Assembly (NCBI GenBank): GCA_035462175.1
Contig: DATHUP010000049.1
Location: 52,614-116,613, forward strand
DNA length: 64,000 bases
Source: Acidimicrobiia bacterium
GTDB taxonomy: Bacteria; Actinomycetota; Acidimicrobiia; Spongiisociales; ZC4RG35
Direction: 5' to 3'
Of this stretch, positions 45,392-53,629 are shown one piece after another (positions within the stretch are counted from its first letter, which is position 1; each line of letters starts with the position of its first letter). Under the pieces are notes generated by a model that saw only the letters and a program-made list of their open reading frames with translations, made no database searches and was not told the DNA's origin. The translations under genes and the position numbers were made by a program.

Positions 45392-46351
45392 ATGGTCCAA
45401 TACGGGTTGACACTGTCGAGTGAGGAGCACCCTCCGTCCAAACTGGTGGAGATGGCCGTCGCCGCTGAGGAAGCCGGGTTCGACTTCGTGTCGGTCTCCG
45501 ATCATTTTCACCCCTGGATTGGCGAGCAGGGGCACAGCCCCTTTGTATGGTCAGTCCTCGGAGCCATCTCCCAGGTCACCCACCGGTTGAAGGTGGGGGT
45601 CGGTGTCACCTGCCCCACGGTCCGTATCCACCCGGCGATCAACGCCCACGCCGCCGCCACGGCGGCCTGTCTGCTCGAAGGCAGGTTCACCTGGGGTGTG
45701 GGCACCGGTGAGGCCCTCAATGAGCATGTGCTCGGCGATCGCTGGCCGCCGGCCGAAGTCAGGCTCGAGATGCTGGAGGAGGCGATCGAGATCATCAGGG
45801 CCTTGTGGACGGGTGAGAGTGTCACCCATCGCGGCCGTCACTACACGGTGGAGGACGCCCGCATCTTCGATCTGCCCGACCAGCTTCCTCCCATCGTCGT
45901 CTCGGCCTTCGGGGACCAGGCGGTGGCCCTCGCCGCCCAGGTCGGGGACGGGTTGTGGATCACGGGGCTCGAGGCCGACATCATCGACAATTATCGGGCC
46001 CAAGGTGGAAAAGGGCCGATATGGAGTCAGCTGTCACTCAGCTGGGATCCGGATCGTTCCACCGCCGTCGACCGGGCTTTCCGCGTCTGGCCGAATACCG
46101 GCCTCGCCGGCCAATTGGCCCAGGACCTGCGCACCGTTGCCCACATGGAGCAGGCGGTGCAGATGATCCATCGCGAGGACATCGAACAGGCCCTGCCCTG
46201 CGGGCCCGATCCCGGCCCGATCATCGAATCCATCGAAGAGGCCTCGAGCCTCGGGGTGGACCACATATACCTGCATCAGATCGGAGACCCAATGGACGGG
46301 TTCATCGAGTTCTGGCGCGAAGAGATACGACCGGCCCTGGAAGAGTCTTGA
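45392..46351 (+). CDS. F420-dependent glucose-6-phosphate dehydrogenase family / LLM-class F420-dependent oxidoreductase
   Basis: LLM TIM-barrel with the F420-G6PD family pattern (FDFVSVSDHFHPW, GVGTGEALNEH). Confidence 0.7.
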   Translation: MVQYGLTLSSEEHPPSKLVEMAVAAEEAGFDFVSVSDHFHPWIGEQGHSPFVWSVLGAISQVTHRLKVGVGVTCPTVRIHPAINAHAAATAACLLEGRFTWGVGTGEALNEHVLGDRWPPAEVRLEMLEEAIEIIRALWTGESVTHRGRHYTVEDARIFDLPDQLPPIVVSAFGDQAVALAAQVGDGLWITGLEADIIDNYRAQGGKGPIWSQLSLSWDPDRSTAVDRAFRVWPNTGLAGQLAQDLRTVAHMEQAVQMIHREDIEQALPCGPDPGPIIESIEEASSLGVDHIYLHQIGDPMDGFIEFWREEIRPALEES

Positions 46352-46566: not shown

Positions 46567-47016
46567 TCAGATCCCTTGGCCAACTCTCATATCGTCGGAG
46601 ACCACGCGAACGCCGTCGACCGATTCCACCAGTCTGATCAACTCTCCGGCCTGATCCGGGTCTGCCGGCCCTCGCACAATCACGTTGCCGTCACGGACGT
46701 CTATCACGAGGTCCCTCTTCGGCCCGTCCCAGCGACCGACCGCTTCGCTCTTGATCTTCTGGAGGAGGGTCTCGTCGTCGACCTCGACGGGCTCCTGGAA
46801 TGGCTCGGTGAGCTTGTGGGCCACCCCGCGGGCGACACCCTGTTGGTAGCGCGCCTTCGCCATCATCTTGTCACGGGCGGTCCGCAGGGCGGCGTTGGAC
46901 TGGTCGGCGAGCTTGGCCCGTCGGGTCCGACCGCGATCCGGATCGAAGAGATAGACGCCTGCTGCGCCGACGGTGGCACCGATGCCAGCCGAGCGCCAGA
47001 ACTTTCCCATGCTCAT
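46567..47016 (-). CDS. YtxH-like plus BON-domain stress protein
   Basis: N-terminal GIGATVGAAGVYLFDPDRGRTRR (YtxH/DUF948 motif); C-terminal BON (VIDVRDGNVIVRG...ESVDGVRVVSD). Confidence 0.6.
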   Translation of the reverse strand: MSMGKFWRSAGIGATVGAAGVYLFDPDRGRTRRAKLADQSNAALRTARDKMMAKARYQQGVARGVAHKLTEPFQEPVEVDDETLLQKIKSEAVGRWDGPKRDLVIDVRDGNVIVRGPADPDQAGELIRLVESVDGVRVVSDDMRVGQGI

Positions 47017-47096
47017 AGCTGTGCCTCCACACTTGGCCTGTCGGCGTCCCTTACCCTCCCCACCACGTGGGAAAACCCGCCGGGGGTCACCTCCGC

Positions 47097-48731
47097 ATGA
47101 TCAGTCCGCGTCAAGCCCTCGGTGCTGCGCTTTGGAGGCTCTCCGACCTGGTCCGGGCCGATGAGAGAGGTCGCTCCTTTCGGGCCAAGGCCTACCGGAA
47201 GGCGGTTTGGTCGCTGGACGACCTCCCCCCGGACCTGGCCGGGCCTGTCGAGGCCATGCTCGCCGTCCCCGGCATCGGGCCCGGGGTCCTCAGGCTCGTC
47301 GACGAGTTCCGGTCCAGCGGCGAGATCTCACTTCTGGAAGCGCTCAGGGAGCAGTATCCGCGCGACGTGGCCAGGCTGCGGAAGCTGCCCCGGATGACTC
47401 CCGCCCTGCTCAGGTCTCTCAAAGGGGAGCTCGGTGTGGACCAGACCGCCGACCTGATCGCAGCGGTAGAGAGCGGTGCAGTCGAGACCCTCAAGGGCGT
47501 GGGCCCGACCACGGCGGATCGATGGGCTCGCGCCCTCGAGCTGGCACCCTCGGCGAAGGCGATTCCCGCCTTCGAAGCGGCGGGGCTCGCCGGGAGTCTC
47601 GATCACCACCTGACCCACCACCATGGCGGGAGAACCTGGGTTGCAGGCGCGGTGCGCCGACTCGACGAATGGGTGGAGACAATCGACCTGGTCTCGGAGA
47701 TGGACGATCCGATCCGGGTTGGCCGGTTCCTCGAGGAGACCGCGGTGGCCCGCTTCCTCGGCCAAACCGGAGCAGGGACATCGACGCTCGAGTCTCACGA
47801 CGGTGTCGGGCTCCGGGTCCATTTGGCCCCAGCGGGTGAAGGAGGAGCCCGGCTCATCGAAGCGACTGGGCCACCGGACCACGTCGCCACATTGGTCCCC
47901 GGGATCGACGACGCCACCCTGTCCGAAGCCGAGATCTATGCCCGCCGGGGTCGGGTGTGGATCCCGGCCCCTGCACGCGGTCTCCCGGAGAATCAGGCAA
48001 TCGGTGTGGTCCGCTCGACGGAGATCCGCGGCGACCTCCACATTCACACCGAACGATCACCAGACGGCCGGATGAGCCTCGGCGAGGTTCTCACCACCGC
48101 GGTGGACCTCGGCTACGAGTATGTCTTGATCACAGATCACACCTCGGGCCTCCGCTTCGGGGGACTCGACGAGCAGGAGCTCGTCATGCAACGGGCCGAG
48201 ATCGACGCGGTCCGGGGCCGCTTCCCCGATCTCTTGGTGCTCCACGGGGCTGAGTTGAACATCGACCGCGACGGCGGGCTCGACATCGGCGACGAAGGTG
48301 TGGCGCTCCTCGACCTAGCAGTGGCCGGGCTTCACTCCCACTTCGATCTGGGGCGGGAGGAACAGACGGCCCGTGTGCTCACTGCCATGCGTCATCCGGT
48401 TGTGCGGATCCTGGCGCACCCCACCGGCCGACGGATCGGGATCCGCCCCGCAGTCGACCTCGACGTCGAGGCGGTGATCGCCGCTGCGGTGGACCACGGC
48501 GTGGCGTTGGAGGTCAACGGCCATCGCGACCGGCTCGATCTGTCCGCCGATCTCGCCAAAGCGGCTCTGTCGGGCGGGGCGATGCTGGCGGCGAACTCGG
48601 ACGCCCACAGAATGGGAGAGTTGGGCAACGTTGCCAACTCGGTGGGCACCCTGCAGAGAGCCGGTGTTGCCCCGGCATCCGTCGTCAACACGCTGCCCCT
48701 CCCGCGTTTCCAGGACTGGATCTCGGGATGA
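47097..48731 (+). CDS. PolX-family DNA polymerase/PHP-domain phosphoesterase
   Basis: N-terminal Pol-beta-like 8-kDa/HhH region (SFRAKAYRKA, GVGP), C-terminal PHP (DLHIHTERSPDG...ITDH...HGAE...AHP); ORF track starts 47067. Confidence 0.75.
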   Translation: MISPRQALGAALWRLSDLVRADERGRSFRAKAYRKAVWSLDDLPPDLAGPVEAMLAVPGIGPGVLRLVDEFRSSGEISLLEALREQYPRDVARLRKLPRMTPALLRSLKGELGVDQTADLIAAVESGAVETLKGVGPTTADRWARALELAPSAKAIPAFEAAGLAGSLDHHLTHHHGGRTWVAGAVRRLDEWVETIDLVSEMDDPIRVGRFLEETAVARFLGQTGAGTSTLESHDGVGLRVHLAPAGEGGARLIEATGPPDHVATLVPGIDDATLSEAEIYARRGRVWIPAPARGLPENQAIGVVRSTEIRGDLHIHTERSPDGRMSLGEVLTTAVDLGYEYVLITDHTSGLRFGGLDEQELVMQRAEIDAVRGRFPDLLVLHGAELNIDRDGGLDIGDEGVALLDLAVAGLHSHFDLGREEQTARVLTAMRHPVVRILAHPTGRRIGIRPAVDLDVEAVIAAAVDHGVALEVNGHRDRLDLSADLAKAALSGGAMLAANSDAHRMGELGNVANSVGTLQRAGVAPASVVNTLPLPRFQDWISG

Positions 48732-48783
48732 TGCAGAGGGCCGAGTCGAAGCAGCCGGCTGACACGGCTGGCCTACTGAACCG

Positions 48784-49455
48784 TCAGCTGCGGAGACGGG
48801 TCGGCTGGAGGTGCTTACCTCTCGGGAGCAGCGATGTGCTGGTGTCGTCGTGGTCGAGCCACGATCCGAGCACCTCGAGCGGAGAGAGGCCAGCACCGTG
48901 TTGCCACATCACCCGCTGAGCGGGGGCGCGGGCTCCGGGGCGGGTCCGCGCTCTGAAGGTCATCGGGTCGTGGCGCCCCATCACCGTCTCGGCGAGTCTC
49001 GCCTTGTCCGGCTCGAGCGCGTCGACCTCGACGGTCAGACCTCTCTCCGGGTAGGCCAGTAGATCCTCTTCACGGGGGGGGTGGGCGGTGGTGGCGATCG
49101 CGCTTCCGATCCATCCCGTCAGCGCACCGACAACGACACCGAGCAGGCCGTACAGCACCCAGTGCCTCCCCTCAAGCCAGACGAGAGATCCGAACGTGGT
49201 CACCAGCCCCAGCACGAGGGCGCCGGTGGCAGCCGTGCTCATCGAGTGCTCGAGGACTCTGCCACCGGGACCCGGTCCGGACCCCGTCAAGGAGCCGAGC
49301 GGGACGATCACGGTGGGGCGAAGCCCGGCTTGCTCTAGGGCCTCGACCACAGCCCGCGCCGCGGATGAGTCGGAGTATGCGGCACTGACCGTGCTCAGCT
49401 CGTCGTGAGCGATCCCTTGGGCCGAATTCGCAGGTAAAGAGACGTTCATGGACAT
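48784..49455 (-). CDS. hypothetical membrane protein, YflT/general-stress-17M-like N-terminal domain
   Basis: N-terminal domain AVVEALEQAGLRPTVIV...; central TM helices. Confidence 0.35.
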   Translation of the reverse strand: MSMNVSLPANSAQGIAHDELSTVSAAYSDSSAARAVVEALEQAGLRPTVIVPLGSLTGSGPGPGGRVLEHSMSTAATGALVLGLVTTFGSLVWLEGRHWVLYGLLGVVVGALTGWIGSAIATTAHPPREEDLLAYPERGLTVEVDALEPDKARLAETVMGRHDPMTFRARTRPGARAPAQRVMWQHGAGLSPLEVLGSWLDHDDTSTSLLPRGKHLQPTRLRS

Positions 49456-49511
49456 GAAATCCTCCTGGACCGACTCATTTACCCCCTGATCGGCCGCCCG
49501 AAACGCCTATG

Positions 49512-49937
49512 TCAACTCTCGTCGTTCAGCACGGTCATCGAGGTCTTCGGGGAATCCCGGCGCGCTCTGGCCGCGAGCGGGATCCCGTCGTCTTGTGGGA
49601 AGGTGCCGCGCAGGGTGACGGTGCCCTGGTCGATGTCGATGTCCACTGTCGCCATCGGGAGCTCCCAGCTGTCCGCCGCAGTCGGTGGCACCCTTCGGAA
49701 TGACCAGCCCCGGAGGCCCTTGCCGGAGCGGAGTACGGCGATCACTCGGGGGGTACGGCCGGTCCTGGCGACGGCGCGGCGCTCGACCTCCGTGACGGCC
49801 GCGTCGAAGGCGGCGCCGGTGGCCCGGCCCATCCGTGCGGCCAGGGCGCGACGACGCGATTTGCCGTTGGCGGGGTCGAGGAGATACGCGAGGGAGGCTC
49901 CGATGACTGCGCCCTCGAGCAGATCGAGACGGCTCAT
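49512..49937 (-). CDS. YtxH-like plus BON-domain stress protein (paralog of 46567..47016)
   Basis: GAVIGASLAYLLDPANGKSRRR; BON-like TVDIDIDQGTVTLRG. Confidence 0.6.
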   Translation of the reverse strand: MSRLDLLEGAVIGASLAYLLDPANGKSRRRALAARMGRATGAAFDAAVTEVERRAVARTGRTPRVIAVLRSGKGLRGWSFRRVPPTAADSWELPMATVDIDIDQGTVTLRGTFPQDDGIPLAARARRDSPKTSMTVLNDES

Positions 49938-50092
49938 GAGTCGAAGACGGGCGCCCGTACTCGGTTGGTCTCACACGTCGCGTGCTCGCATCCGCAGAAT
50001 TGGCCTGACATCGCTCCCAACTCGCATACCTCGCTGCAGTACTCGCCCGGTTCCGGCACGTGACAGGTGCAGGGCTGGTGTGCACACTCCAT
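49934..50092 (-). CDS. 52-aa cysteine-rich small protein (8 Cys, 3 His); candidate metallothionein/metal-binding peptide
   Basis: MECAHQPCTCHVPEPGEYCSEVCELGAMSGQFCGCEHATCETNRVRAPVFDS; its TGA overlaps the ATG of the downstream BON gene (ATGA); below the ORF-track size cutoff as a separate gene. Confidence 0.45.
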   Translation of the reverse strand: MECAHQPCTCHVPEPGEYCSEVCELGAMSGQFCGCEHATCETNRVRAPVFDS

Positions 50093-50154
50093 GGCAACTC
50101 CTGGTCCGGTGAGACCGTCATACCCCGGCGCGATGCCTCCGAAACCCTGCCCGG

Positions 50155-50919
50155 TCATGGCTGCCAGATCTCGCCGGCGTCGAGATCGGGGAAGGGGGCG
50201 GGCTCGATGCTGGACAGAGGGGTGACGGTGACGAAGTTCTTGGCGCAGAGCGCGGTGTCGCTGGCCGGGTCGGTACCCGCCGAGGACGAACCGACCACGA
50301 ACTGAAGCCTCCGGTCTTCGACGTCGGCATTGGCGACCCGGAAGTAGCCGAAGTCGTCGAGATCTGCCCAATGGATCCCGTTGATCTCGGAAAGCGGGAC
50401 GCCGGGGACGTTGATGTTGAGCACATAAGGCCCGCGGCTGCGATCGATGATCCACCGCGCGGCGGAGACCCCCACCTCGACGGCAGTCTCCCACCTCCAC
50501 GGATCCGACTGGGCGAGACTGATGGCGATCCCGCGGCTGCGAAAGGTCCGCGCGGTCAGGGCGGCCCCAACGGTTCCGGAGTGAATGATCGAGTGACCGG
50601 TGTTCATCCCGGCGTTGACTCCGGAGACCACCAGGTCCGGGAACCGGCCGAATGCACCCAGGGCGGCTGCCATCACCGCAAGCCCGGGAGGCCCGGCGAT
50701 GGTGAAGGCCGTCATGTCGTCCATGTCGACCTCGGTGAGCTCGACGCCGGTGACCGGGTCGAATCCACCAATCCCCGTGCCACTGCCTGACATGTCGCTG
50801 CTGGGGGCGGCGACGACGACGTCGTAGTCTTCGGCCAGCCTGATGGCCAACATGCGGAGGCCGGGCGAGTCGATCCCGTCGTCGTTGGTGACTATTACGC
50901 GGCGCTGCTCGGTCGTCAC
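50155..50919 (-). CDS. surE: 5'/3'-nucleotidase SurE
   Basis: VIVTNDDGIDSPG N-terminal motif and full-length SurE similarity. Confidence 0.85.
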   Translation of the reverse strand: MTTEQRRVIVTNDDGIDSPGLRMLAIRLAEDYDVVVAAPSSDMSGSGTGIGGFDPVTGVELTEVDMDDMTAFTIAGPPGLAVMAAALGAFGRFPDLVVSGVNAGMNTGHSIIHSGTVGAALTARTFRSRGIAISLAQSDPWRWETAVEVGVSAARWIIDRSRGPYVLNINVPGVPLSEINGIHWADLDDFGYFRVANADVEDRRLQFVVGSSSAGTDPASDTALCAKNFVTVTPLSSIEPAPFPDLDAGEIWQP

Positions 50920-51860
50920 GGTGCCGTGGAGAGGATCTCGATCTCGACCCGCTCCGCCAGCTTCGGTATCAGGTCGTGGGATGCGCTGCCCAACCCGTGG
51001 CGAGTGACGTTGGCCGCACCGGCGCCGGAAGCCAGCCGGAGCAGCTCTTCGGGTCCGAGACGCCTGCTGACTCCGGCAGCAAGCCCGGCCGTCATCGAGT
51101 CACCGGCACCGCGGAAGTCGGCAGGCTCGAGCGCGGGCCCGGTCACCCGGAAGGTGGTGTCGCCGAGACGTGCGAGCGAGGGCTGCCGGCCCCGCGAGAT
51201 GACGACACTCCGGGCCCCCTGCTCGATCAGCTGATGCAGCGCATCGAGTGCCGCCGGCTCCTCGCGGCTCTCTAGGGCACCGTCCTCGATCAGGTCGTCG
51301 TCGCTCACCTTGAGCAGGTCTATGGGGCCACCATCGAGGTAGGCCTGCAGCTCCCGGCCGTGGAGGTCGCCCACCACCCGGACATCGGCTGAGGCAAGAT
51401 CGTGGCCGAGGCGCCGGTAGGTGTCGACCGGCACGATCTCGGTTCTCTGGCCGGTGATGACGACCACCTTGGAGCTCAGCGCATGGTCCAGGATCTTCCC
51501 GTAGGCGTCGTCCAGCTCATGGCGGGCCAGCCCGTAGGACGGTGCCTCGGCGATCGGGTTGCGGTCACCGGTTCGTCGATCCTGGATGATCGCCGGGGAG
51601 CTCTCCTGGACCTCCACCGGGCTCAGGTCGATGCCCCACTGCCGAACCAACCCGCGCAACACAGCACCCGACTCCCCTCCGATCGGACCGCAGAGCAACG
51701 GTTTCTCGCCGAGATGGCGGAGCATCCGGGCCACCCAGAACCCCTGACCCCCGGGGTGGATGTGGATATCGTCGGGCCCGTCTTCCCTCCCTTTCTCGAT
51801 GGTCACAGTCAACGCCAGGTGAGGGGCGAATACGGCCACCGTGTGCTGGGCTTGGGCCAT
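50916..51860 (-). CDS. PfkB-family carbohydrate/nucleoside kinase (1-phosphofructokinase/ribokinase-like)
   Basis: PfkB C-terminal signature region DFRGAGDSMTAGLA; GG dipeptide (GGQG) N-terminal motif. Confidence 0.7.
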   Translation of the reverse strand: MAQAQHTVAVFAPHLALTVTIEKGREDGPDDIHIHPGGQGFWVARMLRHLGEKPLLCGPIGGESGAVLRGLVRQWGIDLSPVEVQESSPAIIQDRRTGDRNPIAEAPSYGLARHELDDAYGKILDHALSSKVVVITGQRTEIVPVDTYRRLGHDLASADVRVVGDLHGRELQAYLDGGPIDLLKVSDDDLIEDGALESREEPAALDALHQLIEQGARSVVISRGRQPSLARLGDTTFRVTGPALEPADFRGAGDSMTAGLAAGVSRRLGPEELLRLASGAGAANVTRHGLGSASHDLIPKLAERVEIEILSTAP

Positions 51861-51863
51861 CGA

Positions 51864-52247
51864 TCAGCCTTCCCCGGATCCTTCGGATCCGACGCGGTTG
51901 AAGCTCCACTCCCCGAGCCGCCACATGTCGTGAGCGTCGTGTTCCTCGAGGACGGTAGCCACCCGCGCTGCCTCATCTGATGTCACATCGACCGACACCA
52001 CCGACGCTCCCTCGTCCAAGGCGGCCTCCATGCGGTCCAGAATCCGGGTCTCGTCGCCGAAGACGATGGCCAGCTTGCTGACCAAGCCGGATACACCCTC
52101 CTCCTCCCGATCGGGGGCGAGTGCTGCCTTCCCCGCCTCTCCGTGGAAGAGTTCGGCCGGGAATTGCTCGGCAGCCAGAGCCGCCACTGCGTCACGCCCC
52201 TTGCCGTGATCATCGATGATGGCTACGACCGTGTCGGTGCGATCCAT
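51864..52247 (-). CDS. hypothetical protein, YflT-like stress domain
   Basis: VVAIIDDHGKGRDAVAALAAEQFPAE pattern resembling general stress protein 17M family. Confidence 0.35.
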   Translation of the reverse strand: MDRTDTVVAIIDDHGKGRDAVAALAAEQFPAELFHGEAGKAALAPDREEEGVSGLVSKLAIVFGDETRILDRMEAALDEGASVVSVDVTSDEAARVATVLEEHDAHDMWRLGEWSFNRVGSEGSGEG

Positions 52248-52283
52248 GCGCCGTCTAGGCCAGCCTGGCCGGGTCGGCCACGA

Positions 52284-52457
52284 TCATGCGTCGGGTATGA
52301 ACGAGAGCAGCACCACCACCGCGGCGATCGCCAGCAAGATGAGGGCCAGAGAGAGCCAGACGGCTTTGGCGTTGTTTCGCCTGCCGTGGGGTGTTCCAGT
52401 GGGGAGCTCGCGCTCAGCCATCGGCCGGTCCGTGGGTGAGAGTCCTCCGGGGATCAT
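52284..52457 (-). CDS. putative 57-aa single-TM small protein
   Basis: GGAGG RBS 6 nt before the ATG; MIPGGLSPTDRPMAERELPTGTPHGRRNNAKAVWLSLALILLAIAAVVVLLSFIPDA; under the ORF-track cutoff. Confidence 0.25.
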   Translation of the reverse strand: MIPGGLSPTDRPMAERELPTGTPHGRRNNAKAVWLSLALILLAIAAVVVLLSFIPDA

Positions 52458-52546: not shown

Positions 52547-53629
52547 TCAGCCGACCAGCAATGGGATTTCCAGCTCCTCCTTGGCCTGGCCGCCGTGATA
52601 GCTGCGGAGACGCTTGTCGAAGCCCGGCGGGAGGAGAATCTTGCCTGGGGGTGCGAGGAGGAGAACCTCGCCTACTCGGGCCCTCGCGGCCGGGATCGGG
52701 CCAGGTCCGAGCAGGGCCAATGGATCGGCGGGGAGGGCGCCGGTGATTCGGGCGAGCTCGTCGATAATGGCCTGGGATCCCCAGACATGGACGCCTCTCG
52801 GGTCGCCCGCATAGCGGAGATCGTCGAAGGGTTTGCCCCGGATCAAGATCTTGTCTCCCTCCGCGTAGTCGATGAGACCGTGATCCGCGGTTCCCAGCAA
52901 TGTCACGTCGGGTGGGAGCCGGGACGCCACAGCTTCCCAAAGATTGGCGGCAAGGCGCATCGCCTCGCCGAACTCCTCGGATCCGACCCCGTGAACGTGC
53001 CCGGCGAAGTCGACCGGCCAGAAATAGGTGAAGACCAAGCGATTCGGCTCCGAGGCGAGCTGAACGGTCGCCTCCACCAGGTCTTGGTCGTCCCATGCGC
53101 CCTCGAAGCGAGCGCCCCGATAGAGCAGTCGGGAGAGCGGGCTGCCGGCGAACGTCGCAGGCTGGACGGTGATCGGCTCCACCCCGCCTCGACGGAGACG
53201 CTCCCAGAGATTGGGGCGAGGGAGGAACGATTCATAGTCGTATGCCACCGGTCGACCGGAGAGATCGACCCACTTCAAGGTGTTCACCACCTGCCCCGTC
53301 TCCTCGAGCCAGGTGAGATGGGCAACCAGACCGTGACGCGAGGGGGGGAGGGCGGTGGCGATCGTGGCGAGCGAGACGCTGGTTGTGGTCGGGAACGGGG
53401 CGTGCAGCGTCGCCTGATGCGTTTTAGCGAGTGGCCCGGCCTCCGCGTGCCCGAGTTGGGCCACGCCGAGACCGTCGAACAAGATGAGCACGTAGGTCCT
53501 GCCCTCGGAGACGAGGTCACCGACACCGGGATCGAGACCGGGGGAGGGAGAGCTCCCGATCAGGCGGGATTCGATCTCCGCGACCAGATTGACCAGACCG
53601 CGCGAGTCGTACGAAGGGGCGTCGACCAT
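52547..53629 (-). CDS. alkaline-phosphatase-superfamily (nucleotide pyrophosphatase/phosphodiesterase type I-like) protein
   Basis: Metal-ligand motifs of the AP superfamily (LFDGLG, GTADHG). Confidence 0.65.
   Translation of the reverse strand: MVDAPSYDSRGLVNLVAEIESRLIGSSPSPGLDPGVGDLVSEGRTYVLILFDGLGVAQLGHAEAGPLAKTHQATLHAPFPTTTSVSLATIATALPPSRHGLVAHLTWLEETGQVVNTLKWVDLSGRPVAYDYESFLPRPNLWERLRRGGVEPITVQPATFAGSPLSRLLYRGARFEGAWDDQDLVEATVQLASEPNRLVFTYFWPVDFAGHVHGVGSEEFGEAMRLAANLWEAVASRLPPDVTLLGTADHGLIDYAEGDKILIRGKPFDDLRYAGDPRGVHVWGSQAIIDELARITGALPADPLALLGPGPIPAARARVGEVLLLAPPGKILLPPGFDKRLRSYHGGQAKEELEIPLLVG

Follow-up and report, generated by a model that had tools for sequence, protein, structure and literature searches.

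A putative Cys8His2 metallothionein of the BmtA/SmtA lineage coupled to a YtxH-like gene in a surE operon of Acidimicrobiia

A 64,000-nucleotide stretch of the genome of an Acidimicrobiia bacterium (assembly GCA_035462175.1, contig DATHUP010000049.1; the whole stretch is called the window below) carries, as a first-pass annotation of it had pointed out, a 52-codon open reading frame (ORF) with 8 Cys and 3 His that overlaps the next gene at an ATGA. Its translation is MECAHQPCTCHVPEPGEYCSEVCELGAMSGQFCGCEHATCETNRVRAPVFDS. Judged from sequence, the product is a distant, sub-threshold branch of the BmtA/SmtA lineage of metallothioneins with a Cys8His2 ligand set, and we refer to the gene and the protein as MT (for metallothionein). 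The explanation we favour, with a probability of roughly 0.7, is that MT is a small cytosolic metal-thiolate cluster protein, a divergent SmtA/BmtA member, coupled to a YtxH-like gene in a starvation, dormancy or desiccation operon and serving zinc buffering or storage. What is new is the sequence and ligand variant of a BmtA metallothionein, with its unusual and conserved coupling to a YtxH-like protein; the kind of protein is itself known.

The MT ORF reads as a genuine protein-coding gene under purifying selection. Nei-Gojobori comparison of the window sequence with 21 syntenic orthologues gave ratios of nonsynonymous to synonymous substitution rates (dN/dS) of 0.12-0.31, or 0.14-0.56 after dropping the 12 codons that the search pattern described below dictates. 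The possibility, raised in the first-pass annotation, that the region is merely non-coding or the 5′ untranslated region of the following gene is rejected by these values. The G+C content at third codon positions of the MT frame is 0.74, the highest among the frames, and the CxHxxCxC of the opening eight codons of the MT motif has a single occurrence in the window, where chance predicts 0.08. The ORF had also been described as unannotatable and below the size thresholds of ORF callers. That description does not hold: JGI/IMG already has a call for this very protein, as NCBI has for an orthologue, every naming source giving ‘hypothetical protein’. Relatives at 84-98 % identity are found on metagenome contigs, with identical gene order.

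The 24-sequence MT alignment has no conserved stretch of 7-10 columns, and further loci were instead sought with a degenerate DNA pattern requiring a Met-Glu start and the Cys/His spacing, a requirement that biases the resulting genome set. Applied to species-representative genomes, the pattern found 41 loci, every one an ORF preceded by a purine-rich Shine-Dalgarno (SD) sequence; the ORF lengths are 43-100 aa, and 43-64 aa in 40 of the 41. With the exception of one labelled ‘uncultured bacterium’, the loci are from metagenome-assembled genomes (MAGs) of Acidimicrobiia/Actinomycetota or MAGs labelled Acidobacteriota.

For the start codon there are two candidates. In a second ATGA (50155-50158, minus strand), the surE stop overlaps an in-frame ATG that lies 22 codons 5′ of the MT start, and from this ATG IMG sometimes calls a 73-74-aa form (P0002, P0003). 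We rejected this 74-aa form: the extension is frame-shifted in the related locus L001, and in 13 of 25 orthologues the reading frame offers no start codon further upstream. Because the extension is not conserved among orthologues, the 52-aa form is taken as the product.

When 1.84 billion representatives were searched exhaustively with a profile, only 22 proteins came back at E<1e-3, all of them with the ten residues (C3, H5, C8, C10, C19, C23, C33, C35, H37 and C40) that are invariant in both the 24-sequence and a 51-sequence alignment of the family. The ligand spacing is C-x-H-x2-C-x-C-x8-C-x3-C-x9-C-x-C-x-H-x2-C. Two cluster members, P0042 (379 aa) and P0079 (536 aa), are unrelated sequences that look like clustering artefacts.

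Homology to known metallothioneins is distant and emerges from several comparisons. MT and SmtA are 37 % identical by BLASTP (E 2e-5). Single-sequence phmmer against the PDB gave only spurious matches to concatenated RecA chains; the best PDB match of the family profile is SmtA, 1JJD (E 0.025), with the Pseudomonas metallothionein entries 6GRV and 6GV7 also listed, so a profile search was needed to reach 1JJD. Against 11 canonical cyanobacterial BmtAs, hhalign gave a probability of 96.9 % (E 1.8e-10) over 46 columns, and 96.5 % when the 51-sequence family alignment was used. To control for cysteine richness alone producing the hhalign score, the BmtA columns were shuffled 200 times: the shuffles scored 11.0±2.8 (maximum 24) and the reversed alignment 12.2, compared with 52.5 for the real alignment. 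PF02069, the Pfam model for prokaryotic metallothioneins, gives weak matches in 15 of the 24 family members, the best at 4.6e-5. The resemblance to metallothioneins proposed in the first-pass annotation is thereby upheld as distant homology to SmtA/BmtA. No report specific to this MT subfamily in Acidimicrobiia or Actinobacteria came up in literature searches.

MT is like the SmtA/BmtA proteins (PF02069; Synechococcus SmtA, PDB 1JJD, Zn4Cys9His2) in its size and in the order of its motifs: a CxCxxCxC-like N-terminus, a [YF]CSxxC at the helix start and a C-terminal GCxHxxC. C3, C8, C19 and C23, invariant in the 24 and the 51 sequences, align with C9, C14, C32 and C36 of SmtA, which we take to be the four Cys of its zinc-finger site A; these positions are kept, and so is the aromatic residue that precedes the third Cys. 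Among BmtAs, variation is found at site C, zinc-finger site A being fully conserved (PMC3323870). By hhalign, C10, C35, H37 and C40 of MT align with Cys16, Cys47, His49 and Cys52 of SmtA. The remaining positions differ. SmtA Cys11 is His5 in MT, a new Cys33 stands in place of Lys45 and gives a CxC motif, and SmtA His40 (Ala in MT) and Cys54 have no equivalent; the Cys9His2 complement of the four-metal SmtA cluster is not matched, MT being Cys8His2. The hairpin loop is 7 residues shorter than in SmtA. In BmtA, the conserved Tyr31 and Ala37 form a CH-pi contact between hairpin and helix (PMC3323870). The Tyr31 equivalent is Y18 in MT and mostly Y or F across the family; the Ala37 position is Glu in MT and is not conserved, relatives having E, R, S, G, A, T, Q, D or C there. 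The setting of the gene differs too: SmtA has a divergent SmtB repressor that MT has not, and MT sits in a SurE operon, coupled to a YtxH-like gene.

On the minus strand the gene order is phosphodiesterase, p57, p127, PfkB, SurE, MT, YtxH-like and p223 (Table 1). This order is kept in approximately 27 of the 41 pattern-matched loci, down to 54 % MT identity. The surE gene lies directly upstream of MT, with a gap of 62 nt, and SurE identity across the loci is 75-98 %. Orthologues of the YtxH-like gene are found 3′ of MT in related loci. The first-pass annotation had proposed to check whether the small ORF and its ATGA are conserved, and they are: among 24 syntenic loci, the 4-nt overlap (NTGA) is present in 21, the other three having the genes 1-4 nt apart. 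An SD core precedes MT in all 24 and the downstream YtxH-like gene in none, and the start codon of the YtxH-like gene is often GTG or TTG. The geometry of these loci is the classic one for coupling by termination-reinitiation.

The coupled partner and another protein encoded about 2.5 kb away had both been described as YtxH+BON proteins, and this is correct for the 149-aa protein, which matches both Pfam models. The 141-aa partner is its paralogue (29 % identity, E 6e-8) but only part of the description applies to it. Its match to YtxH (PF12732) reaches 22.7 bits, below the gathering cut-off of 37.5, and there is no match to BON (PF04972); only the first, N-terminal BON-like strand motif (VDIDIDQGTVTLRG) is kept.

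Several MAGs have a second MT paralogue outside the SurE operon, and some paralogues have no coupled downstream gene. Genomes with two MT genes include DATHUL01 (loci L026 and L039), DASUSU01 (L042 and L047), CAWKEI01 (L013 and L025) and the one with contig DATABS010000003.1 (L035 and L045). Either a SurE-operon copy is accompanied by a more divergent copy elsewhere, or both copies are in SurE-type clusters; DATABS01 has two non-operonic copies on one 54.7-kb contig.

The neighbours of the paralogues are informative. Genes for MscS-like channels adjoin them in four loci, as inferred from a shared N-terminal sequence and Pfam-confirmed in L012 only. Other neighbours are GlsB/Transgly_assoc, a BON protein, a STAS protein and YtxH or YtxH-BON genes. 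In L028 (3856-7570) a non-operonic paralogue adjoins genes for an OtsA-like GT20 protein, a trehalose phosphatase (OtsB) and an alpha-amylase-family enzyme, and in L058 (4208-5059), on a contig unrelated to that of L028, another adjoins a trehalose phosphatase gene. In the region 2728-5138 of L052, the distant CxH-type member P0075 (45 aa) is encoded 24 nt 3′ of a heavy-metal P-type ATPase (HMBD + E1-E2); approximately 3-5 kb downstream follow OEP and CusB/CzcB efflux genes. Such surroundings are classical for metal resistance and differ from the Acidimicrobiia operon. Since P0075 adjoins a P-type ATPase and efflux genes, it provides independent context evidence that the CxH-type family probably handles metal ions.

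Most likely, MT would serve in dormancy or starvation, as a Zn(II)-thiolate cluster protein made together with a stress protein. The protein would fold around a treble-clef Zn site and build a cluster of about 3 Zn(II), possibly 4 Cd(II), on the model of the PflQ2 metallothionein of Pseudomonas, whose ten ligands (Cys9His) bind Zn3 or Cd4 (PMC7387436). Ribosomes ending the MT ORF would re-initiate on the YtxH-like gene, so that both proteins would be made together, and the whole same-strand cluster, from phosphodiesterase to p223, would be a starvation, dormancy or desiccation operon. The task of MT within it would be the buffering or storage of zinc, and possibly of thiol redox capacity, in the service of long-term survival and not of acute detoxification of metals. 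A stationary-phase or desiccation flavour is plausible from context: SurE, YtxH/BON, and paralogues by MscS-like, trehalose and GlsB genes.

The PflQ2 metallothionein is a close parallel for such a role. Like MT, it is of the BmtA type, has ten ligands and no metal-responsive regulator, and shares its operon with genes of unknown function. The Pseudomonas proteins differ from MT in keeping the canonical CxCxxCxC start and in having a long disordered His-rich tail and other neighbours. A survival role fits because the BmtA homologue of P. fluorescens was found experimentally to serve starvation survival: it is induced only in stationary phase, improves long-term survival of starvation and is dispensable for metal resistance (PMC7387436). 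This starvation benefit suits the survival and stress context of the Acidimicrobiia gene.

Several points weigh against the zinc-buffering explanation. Its physiological side is an extrapolation of gene context and of one Pseudomonas study, and the operon showed neither a metal sensor (ArsR/SmtB, Zur) nor a metal transporter. The match of MT itself to PF02069, although full-length, is weak (E 0.029; 15 bits against a gathering cut-off of 33), and an NCBIfam search of the protein gave no match. The AlphaFold2 model is moderately confident (predicted local distance difference test score, pLDDT, 71.9); its top Foldseek match is a Pseudomonas metallothionein, 6GV6, at a non-significant level (E 2.2, template modelling score 0.40). 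Finally, ligand invariance within the 41 pattern-found loci is partly by construction, a constraint from which the exhaustive profile search is free.

Four other functions and one more specific version of the zinc-buffering explanation were weighed. The specific version, which we consider possible and rather doubtful, makes MT and the YtxH/BON-like protein a dedicated two-protein module, co-translated at a fixed ratio, in which MT would deliver zinc or redox equivalents to, or withhold them from, a membrane-associated stress protein resembling late embryogenesis abundant (LEA) proteins during desiccation or dormancy. In 4 of 19 loci (L029, L032, L037, L045) a non-syntenic MT paralogue has YtxH/BON-type genes no more than about 3.5 kb away, and the link between MT and YtxH/BON therefore recurs outside the inherited operon. 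If true, a metallothionein would here be functionally paired with one specific client, something that to our knowledge has not been described for bacterial metallothioneins.

Slightly less probable, and in our opinion unlikely, is that MT is a single-site SmtA-like zinc finger of the E. coli GatA type, with one structural Zn and a protein- or nucleic-acid-binding partner or regulator function, for example toward the YtxH-like protein. GatA-type proteins presumably keep the single zinc-finger site only. The treble-clef core of the SmtA zinc finger is common to these ‘SmtA-like zinc fingers’ (Blindauer et al. 2002, cited in PMC3323870) and, as predicted, to MT. The four positions matching the SmtA zinc-finger site are the best-aligned part of MT, tight co-translation with one specific partner would suit a hetero-complex, and the operon contains no metal-homeostasis genes. 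A single site does not, however, account for the six further ligand positions that are invariant in the MT family; all ten are invariant even in members found without the pattern constraint, and the distant member described above adjoins a heavy-metal P-type ATPase and Cus/Czc genes.

That MT is a detoxification metallothionein, for excess Zn or Cd or for Cu(I) in the manner of MymT, with the stress-operon location incidental, we regard as improbable. MymT, the copper metallothionein of Mycobacterium tuberculosis, is like MT in its length of about 50 aa, its Cys-richness, its metal binding (predicted in the case of MT) and its phylum, Actinomycetota. It is a Cu(I) protein whose Cys pattern differs from that of MT, and it is not known to be related to BmtA. 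Binding of Cu(I) by MT is disfavoured by its His ligands and four-coordinate zinc-finger site (PMC3323870). As for zinc, SmtA protects against its excess (PMC7387436) and P0075 sits in a metal-efflux cluster; yet the Acidimicrobiia gene has no efflux pump or metal sensor beside it, the SurE/YtxH operon is kept in approximately 27 of 41 loci, and the paralogues adjoin osmotic-stress genes.

Two further readings have little left to support them. If the ORF were a leader or upstream ORF that serves only the translation of the YtxH-like gene, by driving or regulating it, and whose peptide is irrelevant, the downstream gene would be expected to look as it does, without an SD and overlapping the MT stop; purifying selection on the amino acids, the ten invariant ligands, the existence of uncoupled paralogues and the homology of the family to BmtA already largely refute this and make it very improbable. 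Least probable of all is a Cys-rich ribosomally synthesized and post-translationally modified peptide: MT is small and Cys-rich enough to be its precursor, but the conserved neighbourhood has no radical-SAM enzyme, cyclase, protease or exporter, and MT shows no leader/core division and good homology to a folded metalloprotein.

Table 1. Features of the MT locus, in window coordinates
Feature	Position	Strand	Basis
Phosphodiesterase/nucleotide pyrophosphatase-family protein, 360 aa, PF01663; probable first gene of the cluster	52547..53629	-	Pfam via orthologues; tblastn 70-82 % identity in syntenic loci
p57, 57-aa peptide with hydrophobic C-terminal segment	52284..52457	-	Homologues at 33-74 % identity, same position in several loci
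p127, 127 aa, unknown family	51864..52247	-	No Pfam match; conserved in orthologues
PfkB-family kinase, PF00294, E 2.6e-30; stop overlaps SurE start by 4 nt	50916..51860	-	Pfam
SurE (5′/3′-nucleotidase, ‘survival protein E’), PF01975, 138.8 bits, E 2.4e-40	50155..50919	-	Pfam
Shine-Dalgarno AGGAG, 5 nt ahead of MT ATG	50098..50102	-	Read from sequence
MT-like gene, 52 aa, Cys8His2 (+1 His), divergent BmtA/SmtA type	49934..50092 (stop included)	-	Translation, dN/dS, hhalign
ATGA overlap: MT stop TGA shares bases with YtxH-like ATG	49934..49937	-	Read from sequence
YtxH-like protein, 141 aa, truncated BON-like motif; coupled partner	49512..49937	-	Pfam sub-threshold, paralogy
p223, 223-aa conserved membrane protein of unknown family; last cluster gene	48784..49455	-	No significant Pfam match; syntenic in ~27 loci
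PolX-like protein (HHH_8, HHH_5, PHP) between the two YtxH genes	47067..48731	+	Pfam; same position in L001, L007, L024, L042
YtxH+BON protein, 149 aa, ~2.5 kb from coupled paralogue	46567..47016	-	BON 28.1 bits (cut-off 27), YtxH 28.7 bits

The other genes of the cluster and its flanks were in large part named correctly in the first-pass annotation. Pfam confirms surE, the PfkB kinase and PolX, the last as PolX-like, with HHH and PHP domains. Conservation in related loci bears out the 57-aa peptide. In the PolX-like protein neither a palm nor a thumb domain of a polymerase reached E 0.1; perhaps it is a PolX relative that has degenerated or that consists of the PHP nuclease only, and its GTG start is uncertain. 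Short ORFs that are fragments of uracil-DNA glycosylase lie between p223 and PolX in relatives (L001, 7322-7887); the window has none in the corresponding interval (48731-48784), where the two genes are approximately 50 nt apart. A luciferase-like monooxygenase gene (PF00296, E 2.6e-52; 45392-46351, plus strand) flanks the cluster and is syntenic in several relatives.

The naming of p223 and p127 as two YflT-like proteins had to be given up. Neither these proteins nor nine orthologues of each match PF11181 (YflT / general stress protein 17M), and the two families have no detectable kinship with each other (hhalign probability 1.6 %). The p223 alignment has a hydrophobic central segment. Orthologues of p127 have an invariant C-terminal HDMWRLGE followed by F-N, and the GSEGSGEG tail is mostly conserved; a weak NCBIfam match of p127 to an F420-dependent luciferase-like monooxygenase (LLM) subfamily is probably due to chance.

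An Rfam scan of 45.0-54.5 kb gave chance matches to miRNA models only, and a promoter/terminator scan gave nothing above shuffles. We therefore propose no riboswitch, attenuator or internal terminator. The region had been termed an island, a label that finds no support: the GC content is flat (0.63-0.68) across 40-60 kb and the cluster is syntenic across many genomes. A horizontally acquired island was rejected on this flat GC and on synteny adjoining the nuo operon in relatives.

Some of the genomes that carry the operon call for care. Ten loci (L013, L017, L019, L021, L022, L025, L030, L034, L038, L040) from MFD MAGs titled ‘uncultured Acidobacteriota bacterium’ have the Acidimicrobiia-type operon, with approximately 85 % SurE identity and MT near-identical to that of Acidimicrobiia; the phylum label or the binning looks inconsistent. 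Matches by tblastn fall into 2-3 pieces in different frames in L010 (SurE, PfkB), L025 and L034 (PfkB) and L040 (YtxH-like), which suggests assembly frameshifts or pseudogenes.

Few bacterial metallothioneins are known, and by 2020 only two had had a physiological role investigated (PMC7387436). Outside cyanobacterial zinc detoxification their function has been described as ‘enigmatic’. The motif and profile supplied here allow annotation of genes that would add to them, from uncultured Acidimicrobiia of soil, a Cys8His2 branch of the BmtA lineage that is distinct in sequence and so far annotated as hypothetical. As a natural ligand variant, with Cys replaced by His at the first CxC and with His40 and Cys54 lost, it may be of use for studying cluster composition against zinc affinity. 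The branch appears hard-wired into a SurE/YtxH survival operon and not into a metal-resistance locus, and it would thus lend independent support to the long-term-survival idea developed for the Pseudomonas metallothionein.

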